Virus record (IMG/VR): IMGVR_UViG_2660238215_000014 | Coordinates: 1-10,904 of that record | DNA length: 10,904 bases | Source of the DNA: a virus | Taxonomy: Duplodnaviria > Heunggongvirae > Uroviricota > Caudoviricetes | Strand: one strand, 5' to 3' | Shown: piece by piece, positions 1 to 10,904 of the stretch | How the letters are laid out: each line of letters starts with the position of its first letter | Numbering within the stretch: the stretch's first letter is position 1 | Notes under the pieces: model-generated | Told to the model about the DNA's origin: nothing | Database searches by the model: none | Seen by the model: the letters and a program-made list of their open reading frames with translations, nothing else | Translations under genes and position numbers: made by a program

Positions 1-78
1 CCACCAGTATAAGTTATTGATATATAGAAAAATAAAAATTTTTAGTGTCGAATCTGGTTGTTTTTTGTTCATCACTGG
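1..78. repeat. Copy A of a 78-bp imperfect direct repeat (copy B at 8446-8523; 72/78 identical), located 30-108 bp upstream of the terS start
   Basis: Base-by-base alignment of 1-78 with 8446-8523 gives 6 mismatches (positions 7, 14, 26, 29, 30, 55 of the repeat); longest exact blocks are 24 and 23 bp. Contains the 10-bp palindrome AAAAATTTTT (34-43) and TGTTCAtC (66-73), one mismatch from the origin octamer. The window starts inside or at the edge of this repeat, so its leftward extent is unknown. Confidence 0.85.
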
Positions 79-106
79 TGTGTGTTTACATAATTTTCAG
101 GGGGAG
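65..106 (+). promoter_or_regulatory. Putative sigma70-type promoter and ribosome binding site for terS
   Basis: -35-like TTGTTC (65-70), 18-bp spacer, -10-like CATAAT (89-94), Shine-Dalgarno GGGGGAG (100-106) just before ATG 109. Pattern match only; the -10 lies outside the repeated 78 bp and is not conserved in copy B. Confidence 0.3.
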
Positions 107-108
107 TT

Positions 109-585
109 ATGGATCGTGAATTAAAAAATCTGCATCTGAATATTTCCCAACTGGCCGCATTATCCGGTGCTCATCGACAGACTGTTGCGGCTCGGGTAAA
201 AAACATAAGCCCAGCCGGTGGTCATGAGAGCAATCTCAAACTGTACCGACTGACAGATATCCTTGCCGAGCTGATGAAAGCTCCTCTGCCTGTAGATAAC
301 GAGGAAATGGATCCTCATGCGCGTAAAGCATGGTACCAGTCAGAACGTGACCGACTGAAATTTGAGCAGGAAACTGGTCAGCTTGTGCCAGTCAGTGATG
401 TCAGGCGGTCCTTTTCTGTCGTGGTGAAAGCGATAGTTCAGGTACTGGAAACCTGGCCTGACCGGCTGGAGAGGGACAGGGGGTGGACCGCATCACAACT
501 GAATGAAGTACAGATTGTGGTTGATGAGATCCGCGACACACTGGAAAAGGCAGTCATTGACTGTTGTGATGAGGCCGATATGTGA
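109..585 (+). CDS. terS: Phage terminase small subunit (Nu1-like, N-terminal helix-turn-helix DNA-binding domain)
   Basis: 158-aa ORF with good RBS; N-terminal motif LNISQLAALSGAHRQTVAARV resembles the winged-HTH of small terminases; its stop overlaps the start of the gpA-type large terminase ORF (GTGA at 582-585), the classic terS-terL coupling. Confidence 0.65.
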   Translation: MDRELKNLHLNISQLAALSGAHRQTVAARVKNISPAGGHESNLKLYRLTDILAELMKAPLPVDNEEMDPHARKAWYQSERDRLKFEQETGQLVPVSDVRRSFSVVVKAIVQVLETWPDRLERDRGWTASQLNEVQIVVDEIRDTLEKAVIDCCDEADM

Positions 586-1589
586 ATCAGGTGAACGAGA
601 GCCATAGCCGCGCATCCGATATCTGGCGCGAAGTGGCCTCGCTGTTTCGCCCACCCAGCCGGTTACCAGTAGCGGAAGCCATCAGGCGTTATATGCGGGT
701 TCCACGGGGAGCCAATACTTCCGGTCCGTGGGAGTCATCGCTGACGCCCTATATGATTGACCCCATTAATACATTATCAGCCCGTGAATATGACGCGGTG
801 GTGTTTGTGGGACCTGCGCGAACCGGGAAAACCGAAGGGCTGATTGATGGCTGGATTGTGTACGGCATCATCTGTGATCCGGCGGATATGCTGGTGGTGC
901 AGATGACTGAGACGAAGGCGCGTGAGCATTCCAGAACGCGTCTTTCCAGGACGTTTCGCCACAGTCCGGAGGTCAGCAAGCGCCTCAGTCCTTCCCGTAA
1001 TGACAACAACGTCCACGATAAAATGTTTCTTGACGGCTCCTTCCTGAAGATTGGCTGGCCGTCGATCACCGTCTTTTCCTCTTCGGATTACCGTCGTGTG
1101 GCGCTGACGGATTATGACCGTTTCCCTGAAAACGTGGACGGGGAAGGGGATGCCTTCACGCTGGCCTCAAAGCGTACCACCACCTTTATGTCCTCGGGGA
1201 TGACCCTGGTCGAGAGTTCACCGGGGCGGGATATCACCGATACCAAATGGCGTTGTGGTGGCGCACATGAGGCACCGCCAACAACGGGGATCCTGTCACT
1301 GTATAACCGGGGAGACCGCCGCCGGTGGTACTGGCCGTGTCCGCACTGCGGGGAATATTTTCAGCCGGTGATGGATAACATGACCGGATACCGGAATAAC
1401 CCGGATTTTGTGGCTGCCGGTCAGGCTGCCCGTCTGATGTGTCCGCATTGTCGCGGGCTGATTGCCCCTGAGCAGAAACGCGAACTGAATAACCAGGGGA
1501 TCTGGCTTCGTGAAGGTGAACGGGCGGCGGCGGACGGCAGTATCACCGGAACGCCACGAAACTCCCGGATTGCGTCATTTTGGATGTAG
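582..1589 (+). pseudogene. terL: Large terminase, lambda gpA family, N-terminal fragment only (335 aa versus about 640 aa expected)
   Basis: Walker A GPARTGKT; paired CxxC motifs (CPHCGEYF ... CPHCRGL) as in lambda gpA from memory; gpA-like similarity continues to the last residues (GIWLREG ... ASFWM), then a TAG stop at 1587-1589 coincides with a sharp shift to AT-rich non-coding DNA. No continuation in any frame. Confidence 0.8.
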
Positions 1590-1750
1590 GGTACATTTCT
1601 TACCTGTTTGTATGTTCTGGTGTCGATTCATAGTCTTTTCAATGAGTTGTGATTTTATGAGTTTCCTCTCTTTGCTTGATAATGAGTTAGTTTATCGCTT
1701 GTTATTGGCTTGAATGGACTACATGACGGACTAAAAAATGAGGGCGATAG

Positions 1751-2989
1751 ATGTCGGTAAAGCCATTAACCGTGACTGAAGTTAAGGGGATGAAACCACG
1801 TGAAAAGGACTATGCCGTTTATGATGGGTTCGGTTTATTGCTGAATGTGAGTAAAGCCGGTGGGAAAGTGTGGCGTTTCCGTTATAGCCATCCGATAACG
1901 AAGAAACGGCAGACATACACGATAGGACGTTTTCCTGAATTCTCACTCGCGGAAGCACGGGAAGTACGTGATGAACTTCGGCGAATGATTGCACGTGGAG
2001 TTGATCCAGTGACGGAGAAGAAAAATCGTAAAATTGAGATGTCACTAAAAAATCTACAGACATTTGAAGCTGTTGCTAATGCATGGTTCGCTTTTAAAAA
2101 GGGATCTGAATTGCGGAAACCTACGCTGTATAATATCGAATATGAAGTATACAAATATCTTGTTCCTTTCTTTGGTAAGTACAGTATAGAAAAAATTACA
2201 GCACCAGTAGCTATTAATGCTCTGGATGCCGTATCCGATAAGAATGCGTTGCAAAAAAAATTAATATCAAGATTAAATGAAATTATGAATTATGCTGTAA
2301 ATTGTGGAGCATTGAAAGCAAATCCATTACTTAAGATAAAGACTGCATTCACAGGAAAGAAAAATAAATCATTAGCAGCACTACCTGTTGAAAGATTGCC
2401 TGAATTTCTGAGCTGGTGGGATAGTGTGCCTCATACCTATCAAATAGCTCATAATGCACTTTTATTCCAGATATTGACAATGGTTAGGCCAGGTGAGGCG
2501 ATTAAAGCAGAGTGGTCAGAGATTGATTTTGATTCTGGCTTGTGGATTATCCCCGCGCATAAAATGAAATGCCATCGTGAACATGTTGTTCCCTTGTCAT
2601 CACAGGCTATTAGTATCCTCAGAACAATGCAGGAAATAAAAAGAGGGCGTTATGTGTTTTTTTCCTCCAGAACAAAAGATGCGCCTATGGGGAGGAATAC
2701 TATCAAGACCCCAATTGCTGCCAGCAAGTTCAAAGGGATTGTAACGTTACATGGTTTTCGTTCAATGTGGAGTACGCTTTTAAATGAGGAGGGATTTAAC
2801 CCCGATGTAATCGAGGCTGCATTGGCGCATAAAAGTGGTGATAAAATAAGAGATATTTATAATAGAACTATTTATCTAGAACAGCGTAAGATCATGATGC
2901 AATGGGTCGGTGATTTTTTTGATGATGCGAGAAAAGGGGTAATTAATAGATCCGGTGGTATGAAAGGTTTAAGAGTAGTAAATGGTTGA
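1751..2989 (+). CDS. int: Tyrosine site-specific integrase, P4-like family (N-terminal arm-binding domain plus catalytic domain)
   Basis: 412 aa; N-terminus GLLLNVSKAGGKVWRFRYSHP...GRFPEFSLAEAREVRDEL matches the P4-type integrase arm-binding domain; C-terminal catalytic signature R (MVRPGEA), HGFRSMWST, LAHKSGDKIRDIYNRTIY with terminal Tyr. RBS GAGGG 6 nt upstream. Gene is markedly more AT-rich than its neighbours. Confidence 0.9.
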   Translation: MSVKPLTVTEVKGMKPREKDYAVYDGFGLLLNVSKAGGKVWRFRYSHPITKKRQTYTIGRFPEFSLAEAREVRDELRRMIARGVDPVTEKKNRKIEMSLKNLQTFEAVANAWFAFKKGSELRKPTLYNIEYEVYKYLVPFFGKYSIEKITAPVAINALDAVSDKNALQKKLISRLNEIMNYAVNCGALKANPLLKIKTAFTGKKNKSLAALPVERLPEFLSWWDSVPHTYQIAHNALLFQILTMVRPGEAIKAEWSEIDFDSGLWIIPAHKMKCHREHVVPLSSQAISILRTMQEIKRGRYVFFSSRTKDAPMGRNTIKTPIAASKFKGIVTLHGFRSMWSTLLNEEGFNPDVIEAALAHKSGDKIRDIYNRTIYLEQRKIMMQWVGDFFDDARKGVINRSGGMKGLRVVNG

Positions 2990-3002
2990 GGAGGTTCAGC
3001 AA

Positions 3003-3206
3003 ATGAATACCAATGAAGATATTTTATTTACTAAAGACGTAATGAAAATCTTGCGATATGGAGCAATGAGTGCATTCATCAATTTCTGGAAAGATGAGAA
3101 TAATGGTTTTCCTCAGCCGTTCAGAATTGGACGACGACATACCTGGCACCGTAGAGATGTAGAAGCATGGTTAGATAAACAACGAGAACAGGCCAATCCC
3201 CACTAA
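3003..3206 (+). CDS. alpA: AlpA/Vis-like small HTH transcriptional regulator or excisionase
   Basis: The track ORF starts at 2982, but a strong SD GAGGAGG (2988-2994) sits 8 nt before the in-frame ATG at 3003, giving 67 aa. Motif FPQPFRIGRRHTWHRRDVEAWL fits the AlpA family (FP-P-ilG-r---W---dV--Wl). Immediately downstream of int in the same orientation, as in P4 (vis) and Gram-negative PICIs. Confidence 0.75.
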   Translation: MNTNEDILFTKDVMKILRYGAMSAFINFWKDENNGFPQPFRIGRRHTWHRRDVEAWLDKQREQANPH

Positions 3207-3220
3207 TAATATCTTTCATA

Positions 3221-3245
3221 CCCCGCGTGCAATGCGGGGTTTTTT
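3221..3245 (+). terminator. Rho-independent terminator after int-alpA
   Basis: Stem CCCCGC (3221-3226), loop GTGCAAT, stem GCGGGG (3234-3239), followed by TTTTTT (3240-3245). Confidence 0.7.
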
Positions 3246-3265
3246 GTATGTGAGGTAAAAAAGAA

Positions 3266-3847
3266 ATGAATAAAAATATTGCCGTGACGGGCAAGGGTGA
3301 CGCACGTCATGTAAAAAAATTCTGTGATATTCGTGATCTGGTCGTTCTGCGCTTTGATAGTGTGAACGTTCGCGTGGTGTATCTGAACGGCGATCCGTGG
3401 TTTGTTGCAAAGGATGTTTGTGTTGCTCTGGAAATAAGTAACTCACGCGATGCTCTAAAAGCACTAGATGCGGATGAAAAGAAAACCGTCGCTTTAAGCT
3501 ACGGTATTCGAGGAAATCCAAATCATAGCCTCATTTCTGAATCCGGTTTTTACAAGCTGATCGCCAGAAGTCGGAAAGCTGTTACTCCTGGCACGTTCGC
3601 CCATCGTTTCAGTAACTGGGTATTCAGGAATGTGATACCGGGTATCAGAAAAACGGGGGCTTATGGTATCCCGTGGGGTGTAGTACAGGATTTTTCCCGC
3701 CGCAAAGAGCAATACCAGATAAGTGCCAGCGAGAAGGGGAGGGCGCTACAGGCATGTAAGCGCAAAAAACGTGAACTGGAGGAAGAAGAAAAAAGGCTGA
3801 TACGTGAATATCAGCCTGAGTTTTACTTTGGCAACCGCATTCAGTGA
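3266..3847 (+). CDS. Bro-N domain protein (antirepressor-like N-terminal domain, short coiled-coil-like C-terminus, no obvious KilA-C domain)
   Basis: 193 aa; hallmark Bro-N motifs VRVVYLNGDPWFVAKDVCVALEI ... SGFYKLIARSRKAVTPGTFAHRFSNWVFRNVIPGIRKTGAYG; SD GAGG 10 nt upstream of ATG 3266; C-terminal 50 aa rich in K/R/E. Confidence 0.8.
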   Translation: MNKNIAVTGKGDARHVKKFCDIRDLVVLRFDSVNVRVVYLNGDPWFVAKDVCVALEISNSRDALKALDADEKKTVALSYGIRGNPNHSLISESGFYKLIARSRKAVTPGTFAHRFSNWVFRNVIPGIRKTGAYGIPWGVVQDFSRRKEQYQISASEKGRALQACKRKKRELEEEEKRLIREYQPEFYFGNRIQ

Positions 3848-3879
3848 CAAAACAAAGGCGACCCGGATCAGAGGTCGCC
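3847..3879 (-). terminator. Putative rho-independent terminator for the minus-strand RHH gene
   Basis: Inverted repeat GGCGACC (3857-3863) / GGTCGCC (3873-3879) with 9-nt loop; on the minus strand the hairpin is followed by TTTGTTTTGT (complement of 3847-3856). Confidence 0.5.
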
Positions 3880-3970
3880 AATGGGAAAACACTAAACATA
3901 AGCCCAAACATCATAGCGATTTGTTGGCTGGTGGGCAATGTGATCAGTGTGCTGGCTTGCTGGTGGATTG

Positions 3971-4153
3971 TCAGCCTTTTGGTTCTATGCCTTCTTTGCG
4001 TAGCTTGTCACGACAGGCATTTTTAACCCATGAACTGAAATTACCAGGCCCAGCAACTTCGTTAATTTGTTGCAACAATGTGTCTTCGAAGCGGATGTTT
4101 TTCTTTGTGCTGCCGGAGCGATCAAATTTTGGTTTCTCATTTTTTTCTTGCAT
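3971..4153 (-). CDS. Small ribbon-helix-helix (Arc/CopG-like) DNA-binding protein; candidate repressor of the element
   Basis: 60 aa; segment KKNIRFEDTLLQQINEVAGPGNFSSWVKNACRDKL has the beta-strand / helix / G-x-S / helix pattern of RHH proteins. It is the only convincing minus-strand gene, divergent from the rightward operon, with palindromic operators at its 5' side and a hairpin terminator at its 3' side. Confidence 0.5.
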   Translation of the reverse strand: MQEKNEKPKFDRSGSTKKNIRFEDTLLQQINEVAGPGNFSSWVKNACRDKLRKEGIEPKG

Positions 4154-4198
4154 TGGTACGTACCACCATTATAAACTGAAACCCAATGGTACGTACCA
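4154..4198. promoter_or_regulatory. Two copies of the perfect 12-bp palindrome TGGTACGTACCA (4154-4165 and 4187-4198) bracketing a -10-like TATAAA; putative operator pair in the divergent promoter region
   Basis: Both copies read directly; 33 bp centre to centre (about 3 helical turns). Rightward -35-like TTGCAT (4148-4153) and -10-like TATAAA (4170-4175); on the minus strand a perfect TATAAT lies between the palindromes (complement of 4167-4172). Confidence 0.6.
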
Positions 4199-4298
4199 TG
4201 TTGAAGATACGCAACCATTAAATACAGCGAAGCCCCGCAGTGGTGGAACACTCGCAGGGCTTCTAACCACCAACGATAGCAAGATTATCGAGGTAGCT

Positions 4299-4490
4299 AT
4301 GTTAAATCATACCACACACCCGCAAGGGCGGGACTTGCACAACCTGAATAAATTCACCTGGCGTTTTATCGCCCTGAGCACGGCACAACCGCGCGTGATT
4401 ACCATTGAGGCCACCAGCGAACAGGAAGCACGCCAGCAATCTCCTGATGGCTGCGTGATGGTATTCGCTGCCCGTATTCGTCAGGGGTAA
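4299..4490 (+). CDS. Small hypothetical protein (63 aa), first gene of the rightward operon; function unknown
   Basis: ATG 4299 preceded by GAGG (4289-4292); corresponds to the C-terminal in-frame part of track ORF 3804-4490, whose upstream part looks non-coding. I have a vague, unverifiable recollection of Icd-like annotations on similar small proteins. Confidence 0.45.
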   Translation: MLNHTTHPQGRDLHNLNKFTWRFIALSTAQPRVITIEATSEQEARQQSPDGCVMVFAARIRQG

Positions 4491-4493
4491 GTC

Positions 4494-4859
4494 ATGCATA
4501 ACCTGTCAATTTCTGACCTTAACTGCATTCAGTTTGACGAGAAATTTACCGGGCAGCTACTGGTCCATGTGGAGAACGGGCGCATAGTGCGTAATTACCA
4601 CCTGCCGGATGGTGCAATTGCCGGAAGCGTTGAAGCATTGCTGGAACTGGCAGAACGTGCGCGACTGATTAAGCCGTTAACGAACCATCACGATGATGAT
4701 CTGCATTTTACCGGACGCATGGTGAGTCACTACGAAAACGGCGTCGAGGTATCCCGCGAACGGCTGCGTGATGATTGCTGTTTCGGCACACTGCCGGAAT
4801 TTATCGAGTTGCTGACCAGTTGCGGTTATCAGGTCATTCAGGGGGGTAAACATGCGTGA
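4494..4859 (+). CDS. Hypothetical protein (121 aa) made of two tandem copies of a roughly 50-aa domain (FTG-x-LV-x3-ENG ... L-x-ELL)
   Basis: SD AGGGG 7 nt upstream. Internal duplication visible in the translation: FTGQLLVHVENGRIVRNYHLPDGAIAGSVEALLELAERA versus FTGRMVSHYENGVEVSRERLRDDCCFGTLPEFIELLTSC. Confidence 0.6.
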   Translation: MHNLSISDLNCIQFDEKFTGQLLVHVENGRIVRNYHLPDGAIAGSVEALLELAERARLIKPLTNHHDDDLHFTGRMVSHYENGVEVSRERLRDDCCFGTLPEFIELLTSCGYQVIQGGKHA

Positions 4860-5085
4860 TGATCGTTTTAATTCCCTGAAACGGGAATTTGATGGCGCAC
4901 AGGAAGATGCAGCGGGCGCATTGTTGAGCGTTGCTGACATGATGAAAGCTGCATATTTTCTTATCAATACCAGTGGCTACAAGTCAGAGGGTGAAATGAT
5001 TCTTAGTATTGCGTCGGACTATGCGGAATATGTGGCAGAGACGCGTTACAGAAGAAAATTCACGGAGGATGTAAGCCATGCATAA
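4852..5085 (+). CDS. Hypothetical protein (77 aa)
   Basis: ATG overlaps the end of the previous gene by 8 nt; SD GGGGGG upstream; acidic, helical-looking sequence, no recognisable motif. Confidence 0.5.
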   Translation: MRDDRFNSLKREFDGAQEDAAGALLSVADMMKAAYFLINTSGYKSEGEMILSIASDYAEYVAETRYRRKFTEDVSHA

Positions 5086-5279
5086 TCATGAAGCGCATGT
5101 ACCCGTAGTGCTTAATGTGCCAGATGATTTCACCGGACGCGTACTGGTTTACCTGGATAAAGGGAAAGTGAAATCACAATGCCGACTGAAAAGTAATGAG
5201 ATTGTTGGTTCTCCTGAATTTTTTTTCTGAACTTTGTATTCGTGCGGAAATAAAACCGGAACTGCTGACAGGAAAATAA
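5078..5279 (+). pseudogene. Third copy of the FTG domain (paralog of 4494-4859), interrupted by a frameshift at a T8 homopolymer (5219-5226)
   Basis: ATG 5078 overlaps the previous stop (ATGCATAA). Frame 1 gives MHNHEAHVPVVLNVPDDFTGRVLVYLDKGKVKSQCRLKSNEIVGSPEFFF* (stop 5228-5230); the +1 frame continues SELCIRAEIKPELLTGK* (stop 5277-5279), which aligns with the ELAERARLIKPL part of the paralog. Not in the ORF track because each piece is under 60 aa. Confidence 0.5.
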
Positions 5280-5283
5280 AACC

Positions 5284-5574
5284 ATGAAAAAGAAAAATTC
5301 TGGCTTTACTGCCAGCGGCCTCTCTCGGCCTGAAATCCGCCCCGGTGATATTTTCCGGGACACCAGACGCGGTGGACGGGTGGTTATTCGTCACGTTACG
5401 CCAGGCAATATCACCTACCGCCGTGAGGCTTACGAATATGACTGCGTAATGCCGCGCCGTCAGTTTGATCGTGATTTTATTCTGGTGGAAAACAAACAAC
5501 AGGCAGTGGCGAGACGTGCAGCCACGAATATTAAAAAAATCCGGGCAATGTTGGTTGCGGGAGGTAAGAAGTGA
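5284..5574 (+). CDS. Hypothetical basic protein (96 aa), immediately upstream of and coupled to pri-rep
   Basis: ATG 5284 after AAAACC; stop overlaps the GTG start of the primase gene (GTGA 5571-5574); K/R-rich, no recognisable motif. Confidence 0.5.
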   Translation: MKKKNSGFTASGLSRPEIRPGDIFRDTRRGGRVVIRHVTPGNITYRREAYEYDCVMPRRQFDRDFILVENKQQAVARRAATNIKKIRAMLVAGGKK

Positions 5575-7370
5575 AAAACGCACCGAGTCTAAAATATCAG
5601 CTGAAGGATAAATTCACTGAGGTAATCATTTTTGCCGGGACGGATGCTTACGCCCATGCTCAACACTGGATTGAAAGTGAAGGACGAAAACACGGCGATA
5701 ACGTGCCTCCTGTTTACCTGGGGCCAAAGCAACTGGCAGACCTGGCGAATATCCGCATTATTGACGAGAAACGCCGTTTTGCGCGTGTCTATATCGCGGG
5801 GGAGATAGAGCCAATCCAGATCAATACTATCGCTGAAAAGCTGGCGCTGGCTGGCGTACAGGAGGCGAAATTATACAAAGGTATCACCGACCAGGAACCG
5901 GAGAACTGGCGCGACTACCTGCAACGGATCCGCGAACAGGCTGAGCACGGGGAAGTTTCAGTGATGAAATTAGCTACAAAAAATAGTGGTCTACCCAAGC
6001 CTGCATTAAATCAGATGGGAGCCAGCCAGAGAGGGGAAGTGTTACTTGAACATTATGGAGGAGCACTGGCGATTCATGCTGACTCTGACACTGTTCACCA
6101 TTACAACGGCGTTGTATGGGAGCCAGTACAGGATAAAGAATTACAGCGAGCTATGGCACAGATTTTCATTGATGCGGAGATCAGCTATTCGCAGAACGCC
6201 ATTAAATCGGCGGTAGATACCATGAAGTTAAGTTTGCCTGTAATGGGGAATACAGCCCGTAACCTGATTGGATTCAGTAACGGTGTTTTTGATACCCGGA
6301 CAGGCGATTTTCGGGAGCATAACAAAAACGACTGGTTGTTAATTGCCAGTGAATTACCTTTCAGCCCACCAGCAGAGGGGGAAACGCTGGCAACACATGC
6401 GCCGAATTTCTGGAAGTGGTTACGCCGTTCGGTGGCTGAGAATGACCGCAAGGCGGATCGCGTACTGGCTGCATTATTCATGGTGCTGGCGAACCGGTAC
6501 GACTGGCAGTTATTCATTGAGGTAACAGGTCCAGGGGGAAGTGGTAAAAGCGTGATGGCGGAGATTTGCACCATGCTGGCGGGTAAGGCCAACACGGTAT
6601 CGGCAAGCATGAAGGCGCTGGAAGATGCCAGGGAACGCGCGTTAGTGGTTGGCTTTTCGCTGATTATCATGCCGGATATGACCCGCTACGCTGGTGATGG
6701 GGCAGGGATTAAGGCTATTACAGGCGGTGACAAGGTGGCAATTGACCCGAAACACAAAGCCCCCTACTCAACGCGTATTCCGGCAGTAGTGCTGGCGGTT
6801 AACAATAACGCCATGTCATTCAGTGACCGCAGCGGGGGGATCTCACGTCGTCGGGTGATATTCAATTTTTCGGAAGTTGTACAGGAGAACGAACGCGATC
6901 CAATGCTGGCGGAAAAAATAGAAGGTGAGCTGGCGGTAGTGATTCGCCATCTGCTTACACGGTTTGCTGACCAGGACGAAGCCAGACGCCTGTTATATGA
7001 GCAGCAGAAATCTGAAGAAGCACTGGCGATAAAGCGAGAGGGGGATTCGCTGGTGGACTTCTGCGGCTATCTCATGGCGTCGGTAATGTGTGATGGCCTG
7101 TTAGTGGGTAATGCTGAAATTGTACCATTCAGCCCACGCAGGTATCTCTATCATGCCTATCTGGCTTATATGCGGGCACATGGGTTTGGTAAACCTGTAA
7201 CACTGACTCGCTTCGGTAAAGATATGCCGGGGGCAATGGCGGAATATGGCAGGGAGTATATGAAACGGAAAACGAAGCACGGTTTGCGTTCAAACGTGAC
7301 ACTGATGGAGGAATCAGAAGACTGGATGCCATCATGTGTATCGGTCACTAATGACGATAGCAAAAATTAA
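5571..7370 (+). CDS. Replication initiator primase/helicase (pri-rep; P4 alpha-like / D5-type SF3 helicase with P-loop)
   Basis: 599 aa, GTG start with SD GGAGGT (5560-5565); Walker A GPGGSGKS near residue 310 with downstream hydrophobic strand and acidic motif (LIIMPDMT); N-terminal region resembles a primase/Toprim-like domain; cognate iteron origin lies immediately 3' of the gene. Confidence 0.8.
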   Translation: MKNAPSLKYQLKDKFTEVIIFAGTDAYAHAQHWIESEGRKHGDNVPPVYLGPKQLADLANIRIIDEKRRFARVYIAGEIEPIQINTIAEKLALAGVQEAKLYKGITDQEPENWRDYLQRIREQAEHGEVSVMKLATKNSGLPKPALNQMGASQRGEVLLEHYGGALAIHADSDTVHHYNGVVWEPVQDKELQRAMAQIFIDAEISYSQNAIKSAVDTMKLSLPVMGNTARNLIGFSNGVFDTRTGDFREHNKNDWLLIASELPFSPPAEGETLATHAPNFWKWLRRSVAENDRKADRVLAALFMVLANRYDWQLFIEVTGPGGSGKSVMAEICTMLAGKANTVSASMKALEDARERALVVGFSLIIMPDMTRYAGDGAGIKAITGGDKVAIDPKHKAPYSTRIPAVVLAVNNNAMSFSDRSGGISRRRVIFNFSEVVQENERDPMLAEKIEGELAVVIRHLLTRFADQDEARRLLYEQQKSEEALAIKREGDSLVDFCGYLMASVMCDGLLVGNAEIVPFSPRRYLYHAYLAYMRAHGFGKPVTLTRFGKDMPGAMAEYGREYMKRKTKHGLRSNVTLMEESEDWMPSCVSVTNDDSKN

Positions 7371-7382
7371 ACTTATGGAATA

Positions 7383-7613
7383 ACTGTTCACCACTGTTCA
7401 CCCTGTCATAAATATCTTTTATATCAGTATATTATAGGGTGAACAGTTATTTATTAACTGTTCACCAAACTATTCACTGTTCACCTTTTTGATTGTTTAT
7501 TGAGCTTCAAGGGTGAACAGTGGTGAACAGTTGGTGAATAGTTTTTGTGAAACTGTTCACCAATTAACATTATGAATTAAAAGATAAAATATCAAAAGGT
7601 GAACAGGTGAAGG
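7383..7613. repeat. Replication origin: array of TGTTCACC iterons in both orientations with AT-rich spacers
   Basis: Perfect forward copies at 7385-7392, 7395-7402, 7459-7466, 7478-7485, 7554-7561; perfect inverted copies (GGTGAACA) at 7438-7445, 7512-7519, 7522-7529, 7598-7605; degenerate copies at 7471-7478, 7533-7540, 7606-7613; AT-rich stretches 7403-7437 and 7562-7597. Confidence 0.85.
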
Positions 7614-7657
7614 GTTAAAACGCAAAAATTTTAATTTACTGCTGTGAGATAAAGCCT

Positions 7658-7903
7658 ATGACAGCGAAGCACACAAAAAAATCACAATCGCACGCCCTTG
7701 ATTTGACGGAACACTGGTTAAGGGTGTCGATAAAAATCATCGACCGCAACGCCGGGGAAGGATATGCGAAAGCACATCCCGAACTAATAATCGCATTCAT
7801 GACCACGGCGGCGGCAAACTTTGCCACGCTGACGGAACGGGAGATTGCCGAAGCGGAACAGGTAACAACCATCAACGTTAAAACCGGAGAGGTGGAATCA
7901 TGA
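7658..7903 (+). CDS. Hypothetical protein (81 aa)
   Basis: ORF downstream of the origin; its stop overlaps the SSB-like start (ATGA 7900-7903), suggesting an operon; no recognisable motif. Confidence 0.4.
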   Translation: MTAKHTKKSQSHALDLTEHWLRVSIKIIDRNAGEGYAKAHPELIIAFMTTAAANFATLTEREIAEAEQVTTINVKTGEVES

Positions 7904-8323
7904 CAGCACAGATAGCCGCTTACGGGCGGCTGGTGGACGACCCGCAGGTAAAACAGACCAGCAAGGGCACACCGATGACGCTGGCGCGTATGGCGGTCCC
8001 CCCTTCCGTGCAGCCAGGCAGATGACGGAACGGCGACGATGTGGTTATCCGTCCTGGCATTTGGCAGACAGGCCGAAGCACTGGAAAGGCACCGCAAGGG
8101 TGAACTCCTGAGCGTGGCGGGTAACATGCAGATCAGCCAGTGGACTGGGCAGAACGGAGAAACGCGGCAGGGCTGGCAGGTTATCGCAGACAGTGTAATC
8201 AGTGCGCGAACGGCGCGACTGGGCGGCAAAAAAGGTCAACAAGGCCAGGCTACTGACGCGCTGAACAGGGCAAAACAACAGGCGGGGAATGATGATCCGT
8301 ACGGGGATAACATACCGTTTTAA
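7900..8323 (+). pseudogene. ssb: Single-stranded DNA-binding (SSB)-like gene split by a frameshift at a C6 run (7998-8003)
   Basis: Frame 1 from ATG 7900: MTAQIAAYGRLVDDPQVKQTSKGTPMTLARMAV..., resembling the SSB N-terminus ([27 protein letters not shown]), stop at 8023-8025. Frame 2 open from 7979 through track ORF 8039-8323: ...WLSVLAFGRQAEALERHRKGELLSVAGNMQISQWTGQNGETRQGWQVIADSV ... DNIPF, resembling the SSB OB-fold core and IPF tail. Confidence 0.6.
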
Positions 8324-8339
8324 GCGACGAGTGACAGAA

Positions 8340-8361
8340 GCCGGAGCAATCCGGCTTTTTT
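8340..8361 (+). terminator. Rho-independent terminator after the SSB-like gene
   Basis: Stem GCCGGA (8340-8345), loop GCAA, stem TCCGGC (8350-8355), then TTTTTT (8356-8361). Confidence 0.75.
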
Positions 8362-8445
8362 ACGGGTCCTCCTGGCGGGGTGGGCCTGAACACGGGGCGA
8401 CGGGCGCGGAAAAAGGCGCATTTTTTGATTTTTATGGCACCATCA

Positions 8446-8523
8446 CCACCACTATAAGCTATTGATATATTGAGGAATAAAAATTTTTAGTGTCGAATCA
8501 GGTTGTTTTTTGTTCATCACTGG
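8446..8523. repeat. Copy B of the 78-bp imperfect direct repeat (copy A at 1-78)
   Basis: See copy A. Weaker homology continues about 25 bp further (TTTACA ... CAGG) with an indel. In copy B the -10-like element of copy A is replaced (CAAAAA in place of CATAAT). Confidence 0.85.
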
Positions 8524-8790
8524 AACGTTCCCGAAAACATTTACAAAAAAACAGGCGCAAAAAAAAGCGCCCCCGATTGCTGTTACCGGAGGCGCTTTTA
8601 CACGACAAAGGAGTTTTTATCGCCAGGATGACGAGTCTTAATATTGCTTCAATGGCAAAAATGCGTCAATGGCTTTGCCTCTCTGAGAATAATCAGAAAA
8701 AACATAATCTGATTTTCAGGTAGAAAATGATTTATCTATTGCTTTTATCGATCAATAATGATGCCCGTTAATCAAAACGGAGGCGGATTT

Positions 8791-8985
8791 ATGCCAGAGA
8801 ACAACACCAGAAAGCCGGATAAAAGTGCCACGGTACACATAGACGCCGGAACTATGGAGAAGATCGAACGCTATCAGCAGTTCATCAAAGATAATCACCC
8901 GGGTATGCCGGTACCCACGAAAGGACAAATCACACGCAGCGCGGTTGAATACTGGTACCAGGCAACGTTAGGAGCCTGGCTATGA
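8791..8985 (+). CDS. Small hypothetical protein (65 aa from ATG 8791; track start 8758), possibly RHH-like, translationally coupled to the protease-capsid gene
   Basis: Strong SD GGAGG (8779-8783) 7 nt before ATG 8791; stop overlaps the capsid ORF start (ATGA 8982-8985); pattern ATVHIDAGTMEKIERYQQFIK ... TKGQITRSAVEYWYQA is compatible with a beta-strand / helix / helix fold. Confidence 0.45.
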   Translation: MPENNTRKPDKSATVHIDAGTMEKIERYQQFIKDNHPGMPVPTKGQITRSAVEYWYQATLGAWL

Positions 8986-10871
8986 AAACATGGTTTTCCA
9001 TTAAGGCTATGGCAGATGTTGTCTATGTGCGTATTTATGACGAGATCGGCGGGTACGGTGTAAAAGCATCGACACTTACTGACGAGATCAACGCGTGCGG
9101 TAATGCGTCTGAAATCCATCTTCGCATCCATTCACCTGGTGGCGACATCTTTGAAGGGCTGGCTATCTATAACGCCCTGAAAAATCATCCGGCAAAGAAA
9201 ATTGTACACATTGAAGGCATGGCGGCTTCTATGGCCTCGTTTATTGCCATGTGTGGCGATCACATCGTTATGCCTGAAAACGCGATGATGATGATACATG
9301 CCCCCCGTGGTGTTACTGCCGGAGTGTCGGGCGACGTTCGCCGCTTTGCTGACCTGATGGACAAGCTGGGCGACACGATGGCGGAAACCTACGCCGGAAG
9401 AACGGGCAGGAGCAAACAGGAGATCACCTCAATGATGGAGGCGGAAACCTGGATGGATGGCAATGAGTGTAAGGCTAACGGCTTCGCAGATGAGGTTATA
9501 CCCGCGATTACAGCAATGGCCCGAATTGAATCAAAACGAATCGGAGATTTTTCAAATATGCCGGAAAAAATTAAAAGCATGATCAGCCAGAAAACTGGCA
9601 GTGGCGAACAGGAACGACTTAACGGAATCCGTGAATTGTTTGGCACCTTCAACGGAAGATATAACGACCTGGCTATAAGTTGTCTTGCGGATTCAGAATG
9701 TAGCGTTGAGAATGCACGCGAACGCCTTTTACTCGCTATGGGTAAAGAATCAACGCCAACAAACAAAACCACCCCCGCAAATCTTTACTACGCGTACACG
9801 GATAACGGCAATATAACCGGCGATGCCATGCGTCAGGGGCTTAATGCGCGTCTTGGTCACGAACGGGCCGAACGCGGTAATCCTTACGCCATGATGAGCC
9901 TTTTCGATATGGCACAGGCATCATTAACCCATCGTGGTATAAGCACGGGCAGCTACAGCACACGCTCGCAGATAGTAAACGCGGCATTCACCCACAGCAG
10001 CAGCGATTTTACCGATATCCTTGCTGGTGGCGCTGAAAAATCAGTGCTTGCAGGCTGGGAGCACAGCGGCGAAACATTCCGCCAGTGGACGAAAAAAGGT
10101 TCCCTTTCAAACTTCCGGGAAGCCCGCCGCGTTGGTATGAATGGCTTCTCAACGTTAAACAAAGTGCCGGAAGGGGCAGAATATAAATACATCACCACCA
10201 GCGATCGCGGTGAACCCATCGCGCTGGCTACTTACGGGAATATTTTCAGTATTACCCGCCAGGCGATAATCAATGATGACCTTGATCAGTTATCAACGGT
10301 GCCAATGGCTATGGGCCGTGCAGCATCAAGAACGGTGGGAAATCTGGTTAATCTGGTGCTTACAGGCAACGTAAAACTTTCTGACGGAATAACGCTGTTT
10401 GACAAAAAACACAGCAACCTGATTGAAACAGGACTGACAACACCGGGACTTAGTGCAGCACGTCACCTGATGCGCACACAGAAGGACAAAAATGGCGAAG
10501 TGCTGAATATTGCGCCTAAATTCCTTTTAGTTCCGGCAGCACTGGAAGATCGCGCGTTGCAGATGATTAACTCAACCGCACCTTTCGGGGCTGATAAAAA
10601 CAGCGGGATCTTTAACCCGTATCACAAGCTACTTGATATCATCGTCGATCCCCGCCTTGATGATATCAGCGAAAAACAATGGTACATGCTTTCCGCACAG
10701 GGAACGGACACAATCGAGGTGGCTTATCTTGATGGCAATGACGAGCCTTACCTTGAACAGCAGGAAGGTTTTATCGTTGACGGCGTGGCCTGGAAAGTCC
10801 GTATTGATGCAGGTGTGGCAGCTCTGGATTATCGCGGTATGGTCAAATCAGGCGGGACAGATTCACTATGA
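8982..10871 (+). CDS. Prohead serine protease (ClpP/S14-like) fused to an HK97-fold major capsid protein
   Basis: 629 aa; N-terminal region has ClpP-like signatures (HSPGGDIFEGLAIYNAL, catalytic Ser context GMAASMASF, His context MMMIHAP); the C-terminal 350 aa or so resemble phage major capsid proteins; followed directly by a strong terminator, typical of a highly expressed capsid gene. Confidence 0.8.
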   Translation: MKTWFSIKAMADVVYVRIYDEIGGYGVKASTLTDEINACGNASEIHLRIHSPGGDIFEGLAIYNALKNHPAKKIVHIEGMAASMASFIAMCGDHIVMPENAMMMIHAPRGVTAGVSGDVRRFADLMDKLGDTMAETYAGRTGRSKQEITSMMEAETWMDGNECKANGFADEVIPAITAMARIESKRIGDFSNMPEKIKSMISQKTGSGEQERLNGIRELFGTFNGRYNDLAISCLADSECSVENARERLLLAMGKESTPTNKTTPANLYYAYTDNGNITGDAMRQGLNARLGHERAERGNPYAMMSLFDMAQASLTHRGISTGSYSTRSQIVNAAFTHSSSDFTDILAGGAEKSVLAGWEHSGETFRQWTKKGSLSNFREARRVGMNGFSTLNKVPEGAEYKYITTSDRGEPIALATYGNIFSITRQAIINDDLDQLSTVPMAMGRAASRTVGNLVNLVLTGNVKLSDGITLFDKKHSNLIETGLTTPGLSAARHLMRTQKDKNGEVLNIAPKFLLVPAALEDRALQMINSTAPFGADKNSGIFNPYHKLLDIIVDPRLDDISEKQWYMLSAQGTDTIEVAYLDGNDEPYLEQQEGFIVDGVAWKVRIDAGVAALDYRGMVKSGGTDSL

Positions 10872-10877
10872 CAACAA

Positions 10878-10899
10878 GGCGGCACCAGCCGCCTTTTTT
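10878..10899 (+). terminator. Rho-independent terminator after the capsid gene
   Basis: Stem GGCGGC (10878-10883), loop ACCA, stem GCCGCC (10888-10893), then TTTTTT (10894-10899). Confidence 0.75.
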
Positions 10900-10904
10900 G
10901 CGGG

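Follow-up and report, generated by a model that had tools for sequence, protein, structure and literature searches.

Twin palindromes and a small DUF3950 protein as a putative repressor cassette at the replication operon of a Gram-negative phage-inducible chromosomal island

What is the role of two identical palindromes that lie between a small gene and a divergent replication operon? This arrangement is found in the virus record IMGVR_UViG_2660238215_000014 (Caudoviricetes), of which positions 1 to 10,904 were analysed (the window), and which carries a phage-inducible chromosomal island (PICI). The small gene on the minus strand encodes a protein of 60 aa, and the rightward operon leads from an icd-like gene to the gene for a primase-helicase. 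A preliminary description of the window had read the locus as a repressor-operator switch. From the comparison of many related loci we consider it likely that the 60-aa protein, a member of the DUF3950 family, is a small repressor which acts on both palindromes, silences the replication operon, regulates its own synthesis and is encoded in an exchangeable cassette.

The 12-bp palindrome TGGTACGTACCA was present in exact copies only at positions 4154-4165 and 4187-4198 of the 10.9-kb window, with a distance of 33 bp from centre to centre, exactly as the preliminary description had reported. Both copies are located between the 60-aa gene and the icd-like-primase operon. The first copy (O1) directly adjoins the ATG at 4153-4151 (minus strand) of the 60-aa open reading frame (ORF), and the core of the second copy (O2) extends to a 14-bp palindrome, ATGGTACGTACCAT. 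The features of this core region are:

3971-4153, minus strand: 60-aa gene of the DUF3950 / YlcI-YnfO family, putative repressor (ORF and profile matches)
4154-4165, both strands: candidate operator O1, TGGTACGTACCA, in the spacer of the rightward promoter P_R and just upstream of the start codon of the putative repressor
4186-4199, both strands: candidate operator O2 with the core TGGTACGTACCA, at about +5 to +16 of P_R

The earlier observation that the palindrome has no further copy in the window also held, with three next-best matches that each had 3 mismatches and were at chance level. Single palindromes of 12 bp were not rare in the window (6 observed, mean of 2.9 in 500 shuffles), so the signal is the identical pair. 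By chance, a given 12-mer should recur 6.5e-4 times in 10.9 kb. The frequency of single palindromes would speak for a chance pair, or for a purely structural one without regulatory function. Against this stand the identical second copy and the conservation of the pair while the spacer diverges, and this explanation, effectively refuted by the comparative data, retains practically no probability. An AT-rich 12-bp palindrome, TAAAAATTTTTA, also occurred twice, at 33-44 and 8478-8489; these copies are 8.4 kb apart and could be due to chance.

We searched IMG/VR with the DNA pattern of the twin sites alone. The pattern GGTACRTACC-N20-24-GGTACRTACC was found in 13 contigs, and in 11 of these a DUF3950 ORF starts directly after the 12-mer. 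When 8-19 bp were allowed between the cores, a DUF3950 ORF abutted the sites in five of ten contigs, with centres 24 or 27-28 bp apart. The other contigs found by these scans harbored unrelated repeats and were mostly of high GC content. Twin sites therefore occurred almost only beside a DUF3950 gene. We also collected 47 distinct combinations of protein and upstream region from GTDB genomes, IMG/VR, E. coli genomes and contig look-ups. Two GGT-N4-ACC sites, the proximal one at the start codon, were present in 45 of these 47 loci. The sites were paired and either palindromic or pseudo-palindromic. They were kept across Enterobacterales, Orbaceae, Alteromonas and Vibrio, and the 21-22 bp between them diverged freely. 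O1 and O2 were 32-34 bp apart from centre to centre in 36 of the 45 loci; in the marine and Vibrio relatives this distance was 24-28 bp. Vibrio phage K45 (OZ196709, 1315-2632) carries a DUF3950 paralogue preceded by two GGTACGTACC sites at a distance of 24 bp, the proximal one adjoining a GTG start codon. This paralogue is divergent from a TnpB gene (OrfB_IS605 and Cas12f TNB domains), and the DUF3950 cassette may also regulate an IS605-type element there.

The central 4 bp of the two sites changed together. The centre of O1 was identical to that of O2 in 38 of the 45 loci, and in 44 of them the two differed by no more than one mismatch. The centres also followed residues 17-19 of the protein: the O1 centre of one locus was the same as the O2 centre of another locus in 82% of the pairs with the same residue type, versus 16% of the pairs with different types. 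The 10 residue types had 9 distinct centres, as listed here:

Residues 17-19 KKN or RKQ: central 4 bp ACGT
Residues 17-19 AKN: central 4 bp ATAT
Residues 17-19 VKN: central 4 bp ATAT or ATGT
Residues 17-19 MKN: central 4 bp AGGT
Residues 17-19 MKH: central 4 bp AGTT
Residues 17-19 MKM: central 4 bp ATTT
Residues 17-19 SKI: central 4 bp ATAA
Residues 17-19 RKI: central 4 bp (G/T)CAT
Residues 17-19 RRT: central 4 bp TCG(A/C/T)

In a prospective test, proteins were chosen by residue type alone from a search with 971 members and their contigs were then fetched. The loci from Hafnia, Serratia, Yersinia (two loci), Arsenophonus and Alteromonas had the same centre as earlier loci of their type, or a nearly identical one. 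Two previously unseen types, one from Providencia and one from a metagenome, each had a new centre that was common to both sites. An Orbaceae type showed a single site and a two-gene arrangement. In this type (TKH) the DUF3950 gene is the second in a unit of two genes, which is preceded by one site, GGT(C/T)AAATAACC, with a 6-bp centre.

A standard promoter scan of the window reported neither the rightward promoter P_R nor the leftward promoter P_L. P_R was overlooked because its -35 sequence matches the consensus at only 3 of 6 positions. We used our own position-weight scan over the 47 homologous loci, which placed the promoters as follows:

4148-4153, plus strand: -35 of P_R, TTGCAT, the reverse complement of repressor codons 1-2 (ATG CAA)
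4170-4177, plus strand: -10 region of P_R, either TATAAA (4170-4175, spacer of 16 bp) or TAAACT (4172-4177, spacer of 18 bp)
4186-4214, minus strand: P_L, leftward promoter of the putative repressor gene, with -35 TTGCGT at 4214-4209, a 17-bp spacer and -10 TACCAT at 4191-4186
4168-4173, minus strand: alternative leftward -10, a perfect TATAAT without -35, overlapping the -10 of P_R (read from the sequence)

The best rightward promoter was located at one fixed place in 33 of the 47 loci, with the -35 sequence TTGCA(T/C/A), O1 in the spacer of 16-18 bp and the -10 just past O1. In the window the -10-like TATAAA lies between O1 and O2, and transcription is predicted to start at about 4182-4185. 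The preliminary description had placed the first palindrome at the start codon and in the spacer of a rightward promoter and the second just downstream of the -10, and the recurrence of this position among the loci bears it out. The second codon of the repressor gene was CAA in 47 of 47 loci, and the other Gln codons of the same genes were CAA and CAG at a ratio of 72:28. This fits a constraint at the DNA level on the TTG of the P_R -35, which would be read from the same bases.

The preliminary description had missed P_L, which lies on O2. The sequence TTGnnT-17-TACCAT was the best leftward promoter in 23 of the 47 loci, always at the same position, and its -10 TACCAT is the right half of O2. 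The perfect TATAAT at 4173-4168 on the minus strand was disfavoured as promoter of the repressor gene, since, in contrast to TTGnnT-17-TACCAT, it shows no conservation among the other loci. For P_L a start at about 4179 is predicted. With starts at about 4183 on the plus strand and 4179 on the minus strand, P_R and P_L would be divergent and fully overlapping. Each operator covers core elements of one promoter and, for the other, the sequence that is transcribed first. The leader of the repressor mRNA would be short and lack a Shine-Dalgarno sequence.

Comparison to the island of E. coli O111:H8 strain 8E revealed the limits of a cassette. Identity between both islands was 99.4% over positions 1-3967 of the window and 96.4% over 4252-5639, and the stretch in between was the only one from 1 to 5639 that did not align:

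3968-4251, both strands: exchangeable cassette that comprises the repressor gene, O1, O2, P_R, P_L and the left arm of a hairpin

This stretch begins at the stop codon of the repressor gene and ends halfway through the hairpin. The corresponding slot of strain 8E (contig 12968-13298) is occupied by a different small gene and different repeats. The flanking genes for Bro-N, the AlpA-like protein and the integrase stay 99% identical through the swap. Judged by these alignments, the exchange is a clean swap of an immunity cassette. This bears on the question whether the palindromes are bound by another factor (AlpA, Bro-N, integrase or excisionase, a helper repressor or a host protein) and the DUF3950 gene is a mere neighbour. 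Regulation of these islands by AlpA is proven (PMC6092414), and the Bro-N gene is located just upstream, at 3266-3847. Besides the swap, in which those genes stay nearly identical as the sites change, two observations argue against such a factor: the sites accompany the DUF3950 gene in unrelated surroundings where AlpA, Bro-N and the icd-like gene are absent, for example in the Alteromonas element and in the Vibrio phage, and the centres of the sites track residues 17 and 19 of the DUF3950 protein. We give binding by such a factor very little probability.

Of 5426 complete E. coli genomes, 9 had the operator type of the window, O157:H7 strains among them, and 1314 had the module of leader and icd-like gene. 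The O157:H7 island was first assumed to be EcCIEDL933; this assignment was dropped in view of the rarity of the operator type. To see what occupies the slot, seven E. coli loci were sampled by their icd-like gene alone, spread over the match ranking. All seven had a divergent small 'YlcI/YnfO' gene upstream, which in six loci belonged to a second family (59 aa, MAT..AKSQ..ARVPHE, phrog_949). This family includes the gene of the prototype island EcCICFT073 (C_RS30120). The second-family cassette, which is that of EcCICFT073 and most E. coli PICIs, occupies the same slot in the same orientation and is followed by the same leader and icd-like gene as in the window. Its promoter is near consensus (for example TTGACG-18-TATAGT), and a type-specific repeat directly adjoins the -35 on the downstream side and recurs past the -10. 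In all seven sampled loci and in EcCICFT073 a small divergent gene is accompanied by twin operators that are specific for the type and lie on the replication-operon promoter. The two cassettes, which are only remotely related although both proteins match phrog_949, share the geometry of operators and promoter. They differ in the sites (GTG-N5-CAC-like in the second family, GGT-N4-ACC here), in the position of the gene start (about 65 bp from the promoter in the second family, inside the promoter here) and in the strength of the promoter, which is near consensus there and has a weak -35 here.

These data also bear on the role of a bound protein. It could bind without repressing the operon, as an activator, a roadblock to read-through, an antitoxin-like autoregulator or a partition or packaging factor. 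Ribbon-helix-helix (RHH) proteins include antitoxins and partition adaptors, and some loci have a second gene on the same strand. The gene of the window is monocistronic, with a terminator behind it:

3847-3879, minus strand: intrinsic terminator of the repressor transcript, hairpin 3879-3857 and T run (terminator scan)

About 90 nt separate the stop codon at 3971 from this terminator downstream. One site in a 16-18 bp spacer and one at about +5 to +16 fit repression and not activation, and sites are placed likewise on the near-consensus promoter of the second cassette family. We consider a role other than repression very unlikely.

The 60-aa protein matched the Pfam family PF13132 (DUF3950) with 33.1 bits (cut-off 25) and the NCBIfam family NF041551 (YlcI_YnfO_N) with 31.1 (cut-off 30). 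PF13132 was also matched by all 17 members of one homologue alignment. The RefSeq name of the protein is 'YlcI/YnfO family protein', and its PHROGs assignment is phrog_949, annotated as function unknown. No homology to helix-turn-helix repressors was found in domain searches. In 97 homologues residues 15, 16 and 20-24 were invariant and residue 18 was nearly so. Hypervariability was confined to residues 17 and 19, with an entropy of 2.3 and 1.7 bits, within a strand-like segment that is invariant otherwise; its residues 18, 20 and 22 are conserved, and an invariant Arg stands at position 21. Alternating variability at 17 and 19 together with Arg21 is the pattern that a DNA-facing beta strand would show, and residues 17-22 (KKNIRF) are the candidate for a DNA-reading strand. 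An AlphaFold 2 model (97-sequence alignment, pLDDT 74.5) comprised an extended segment up to residue 23 and helices at 24-34 and 39-53. No strand was called in this monomer, as is expected if the sheet forms in the dimer only. Alignment by hhalign to six RHH sequences (approximate) placed K17-F22 on the CopG strand R4-L9 with a P value of 0.0011 and a probability of 20%. KKNIRF was paired with the CopG strand RLTITL, and residues 17-36 with the strand and helix A.

Between the promoters and the icd-like gene a structured leader was found:

4215-4263, minus strand: leftward intrinsic terminator, hairpin 4263-4229 and T-rich tail 4228-4215
4264-4298, plus strand: conserved leader with TCTAACCA, a small hairpin at 4274-4290 and the Shine-Dalgarno sequence GAGG at 4290-4293
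4306-4314, minus strand: candidate extended -10 TGGTATGAT for an antisense RNA of about 78 nt, read from the sequence (speculative)

The hairpin at 4229-4263, which was not part of the preliminary description, consists of 14 pairs, and compensatory double changes were seen in 7 of these. Over its first 10 nt the tail contained a mean of 5.7 T on the minus strand versus 1.3 on the plus strand (32 loci). Because the T-rich tail is present on the minus strand only, the hairpin is taken as an intrinsic terminator for leftward transcription; it sits just upstream of the P_L -35. Directly past the hairpin lies TCTAACCA at 4263-4270, in which TAGA is invariant and the other positions are 70-90% or more conserved among the compared loci. 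This arrangement suggests, speculatively, an antisense RNA of about 70-80 nt that would end at this terminator and overlap the icd-like gene at its ribosome-binding site and start codon. About half of 31 loci had a -10-like hexamer within the icd-like gene, at +7 to +13, with weak scores, and the promoter search across loci yielded weak, coding-constrained candidates only. A pairing of the loop GUGGUGG with flanking CCACCA boxes, like seqA/B/C of P4, was also considered and dropped; the loop is not conserved elsewhere.

Could the replication operon be controlled mainly by RNA, through an antisense RNA or the structured leader, with the protein only autoregulating or fine-tuning, in the manner of P1 immI, P4 or P22 sar? 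The icd genes of P1 are controlled by RNA. The conserved hairpin with its 7 compensatory pairs and one-sided T-rich tail and the unusual stability of the leader (z = -3.2) are in line with such control, and RNAs of the C4/IsrK type have been reported in some PICIs (PMC10111431). The Rfam models for C4 and IsrK gave no match at E <= 1 in the whole window, or at E <= 10 in a relaxed scan of the 400 bases at 4120-4520, and a C4, IsrK or CI immunity RNA in the leader was dropped on these grounds. The antisense promoter was weak or inconsistent across loci. Control by RNA would leave unexplained why two sites specific for the protein type lie exactly on the core elements of P_R. It is also compatible with the repressor explanation and does not exclude it. 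As the main mode of control we regard it as unlikely.

Repression by the DUF3950 protein would operate as follows. The protein would read DNA with residues 17, 19 and 21 of its N-terminal strand, and a dimer, or a dimer of dimers, would sit on each 12-bp site (GGT-N4-ACC). With O1 in the spacer of P_R and O2 at about +5 to +16, occupancy would block transcription from the icd-like gene through the DUF4222 gene to the primase-helicase gene, and the island would stay quiescent. O2 comprises the spacer and the -10 of P_L, and the short leader behind P_L contains O1, so the protein would also limit its own synthesis. Specificity would be set by residues 17 and 19 and the central 4 bp, with gene and sites forming one cassette. 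An exchangeable specificity cassette implies that the islands may fall into different 'immunity' types. The terminator scan found no strong plus-strand terminator between the genes for the AlpA-like and Bro-N proteins and P_R, so AlpA-activated transcription could read across the convergent repressor gene, interfere with its expression and displace the protein. Alternatively, a helper-phage factor such as an antirepressor may lift repression. Binding, repression, the transcription start sites and the lifting of repression are what we infer from the anatomy of the locus, its conservation, the covariation and the cassette exchange. The twin sites and the gene may act as the 'lysogeny-like switch' of the island, as the preliminary description had proposed.

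Some points weigh against a repressor. Gram-negative PICIs are switched on by the activator AlpA, the sole controller known from experiments, and the published work on this activation reports no repressor (PMC6092414). The P_R -35 (TTGCAT) is weak, and the -10 is poor in some loci. YlcI/YnfO homologues of the lambda type have no GGT-N4-ACC pair upstream and were for this reason left aside as further examples. Such a homologue, MSTKNRTRRTTTRNIRFPN.., is encoded in lambda (about 48.15-48.27 kb, minus strand) and many lambdoid phages near the right end or at the lysis-terminase junction. The preliminary description had assigned the 60-aa gene to the RHH type; the minus-strand gene stood as described, and no fold or profile search gave a significant match to the RHH fold, which is a caveat. 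From the pattern of its conserved segment an RHH-like fold is plausible. Finally, the 5' end of the gene adjoins the operators, so linkage alone would yield some covariation. Linkage does not explain why in the protein only two alternating residues vary and in both sites only the same 4 bp. The association found by the scans for DNA alone, the concerted change of sites and residues, the prospective loci and the cassette swap support the reading of the locus as repressor and operators.

Among known systems the closest in function would be Arc/Mnt of P22 and CopG, and the closest by position Stl/Rpr. Like Arc and Mnt of P22 immI, the 60-aa protein would be a very small repressor that reads DNA with an N-terminal strand, and N-x-R of the 60-aa protein may be compared to Q9-N11-R13 of Arc. 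Arc acts on the divergent, overlapping promoters Pant and Pmnt (PMC2724298). Both in P22 immI and here an operator on two divergent overlapping promoters would affect the operon as well as the regulator gene. An antisense RNA over the translation start of the first gene, like sar of P22, is conceivable here too. Unlike P22, the window encodes one protein and not two, without significant match to Arc/Mnt in sequence or fold; it has two identical 12-bp sites 33 bp apart in place of one 21-bp operator, and the controlled genes are the icd-like to primase genes of a satellite and not an antirepressor.

CopG of pMV158 is a minimal RHH protein that represses the operon of the replication initiator through a pseudo-symmetric element over the promoter core and is autoregulated (PMC2724298). 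Its role and its operator of 13 bp on the promoter core resemble the situation presumed here, though homology is not significant. The copG gene is co-transcribed with repB from the regulated promoter, whereas the gene here is divergent, and CopG contacts about 50 bp around one element, whereas two discrete sites are present here.

In Gram-positive PICIs (Staphylococcus aureus pathogenicity islands, SaPIs) the divergent regulator Stl/Rpr between the integrase side and the replication operon silences the island (PMC6092414). The gene in the window matches it in position and orientation, and a silencing role is presumed. Stl/Rpr are larger helix-turn-helix proteins without homology to the protein here, and they are inactivated by proteins of the helper phage. 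With P1 immI (C4-icd-ant) and the P4 CI RNA, the locus shares an icd-like first gene behind a structured leader in the immunity region of a satellite or phage. It differs from them by the missing match to the C4/IsrK models and by the orientation of the hairpin as a terminator of the opposite strand.

The other features of the window are:

109-585: terS-like prophage gene, DUF1441
582-1589: terL ORF, stops after the GpA ATPase domain
1751-2989: integrase gene (int)
2982-3206: gene for an AlpA-like helix-turn-helix protein
3266-3847: gene for a Bro-N protein
4299-4490, plus strand: icd-like gene, 63 aa, first gene of the rightward operon (NCBIfam NF033153, E 4e-20)
5284-5574: DUF4222 gene
5571-7370, plus strand: pri-rep, primase-helicase gene (domains D5_N, DUF5906, Pox_D5)
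7900-8025 and 8039-8323: split gene for a single-stranded DNA-binding protein (SSB)
8982-10871: ClpP protease-capsid fusion gene

The rightward operon leads to pri-rep, in agreement with the preliminary description, with small ORFs between the icd-like and DUF4222 genes. Helper-embedded PICIs (HE-PICIs) are defined by co-oriented int, alpA-like and pri-rep genes, the order integration-Bro-replication-late and insertion in a late gene of the helper prophage (PMC10111431). The terL ORF of the prophage is cut at 1589, just before the integrase gene of the island, and in strain 8E, which has an island with 97-99% identity, the C-terminal half of terL follows the island, and then the portal and capsid genes. 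Since the gene order corresponds and terL resumes after the strain 8E island, the element is, by its sequence, a Gram-negative HE-PICI. These features are seen at 109-1750 of the window and at 9109-10592 and 20824-21954 of the strain 8E contig. Direct and inverted repeats of the CTGTTCACC type at 7455-7544, just downstream of pri-rep, are probably the replication origin of the island. A frameshift or stop divides the SSB gene of the window; the strain 8E island has this gene intact (contig 16950-17372). The icd-like frame is open from 3804, and some RefSeq genomes list a 135-aa 'Icd-like' coding sequence that overlaps the repressor gene and both operators; the O157:H7 contig carries this annotation at 9243-9650. 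This longer coding sequence is probably an artefact, considering the conserved start ATG at 4299 and the GAGG at 4290-4293.

The repressor of Gram-negative PICIs is stated as unknown in the paper on these islands (PMC6092414), and YlcI/YnfO is listed only as an accessory 'prophage-associated protein' (PMC13612085). None of the papers on Gram-negative PICIs that were searched mentions the twin sites, and our literature search on the function of DUF3950/YlcI/YnfO, on GGTACGTACC and on PICIs together with RHH, which covered few subscription journals, found nothing relevant. Small repressors with operators that overlap promoters are a known kind of system; new is a candidate repressor for the phage-inducible islands of Gram-negative bacteria, which was not described in the literature searched. 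It is possible, and for now a tentative proposal, that this cassette and its sister family from EcCICFT073 are the missing master repressor of Gram-negative PICIs, with a code between residues 17/19 and the central 4 bp, hetero-immune types, a sar-like antisense RNA and derepression by AlpA read-through or a helper-phage antirepressor. For the biology of PICIs the prediction is concrete and easy to test. If the proteins are repressors, silencing and immunity could be tested directly with the 60-aa protein and a DNA fragment of 70 bp, a domain of unknown function (DUF3950) would gain a function, and the covariation of residues and bases would provide a compact set of orthogonal repressor-operator pairs.

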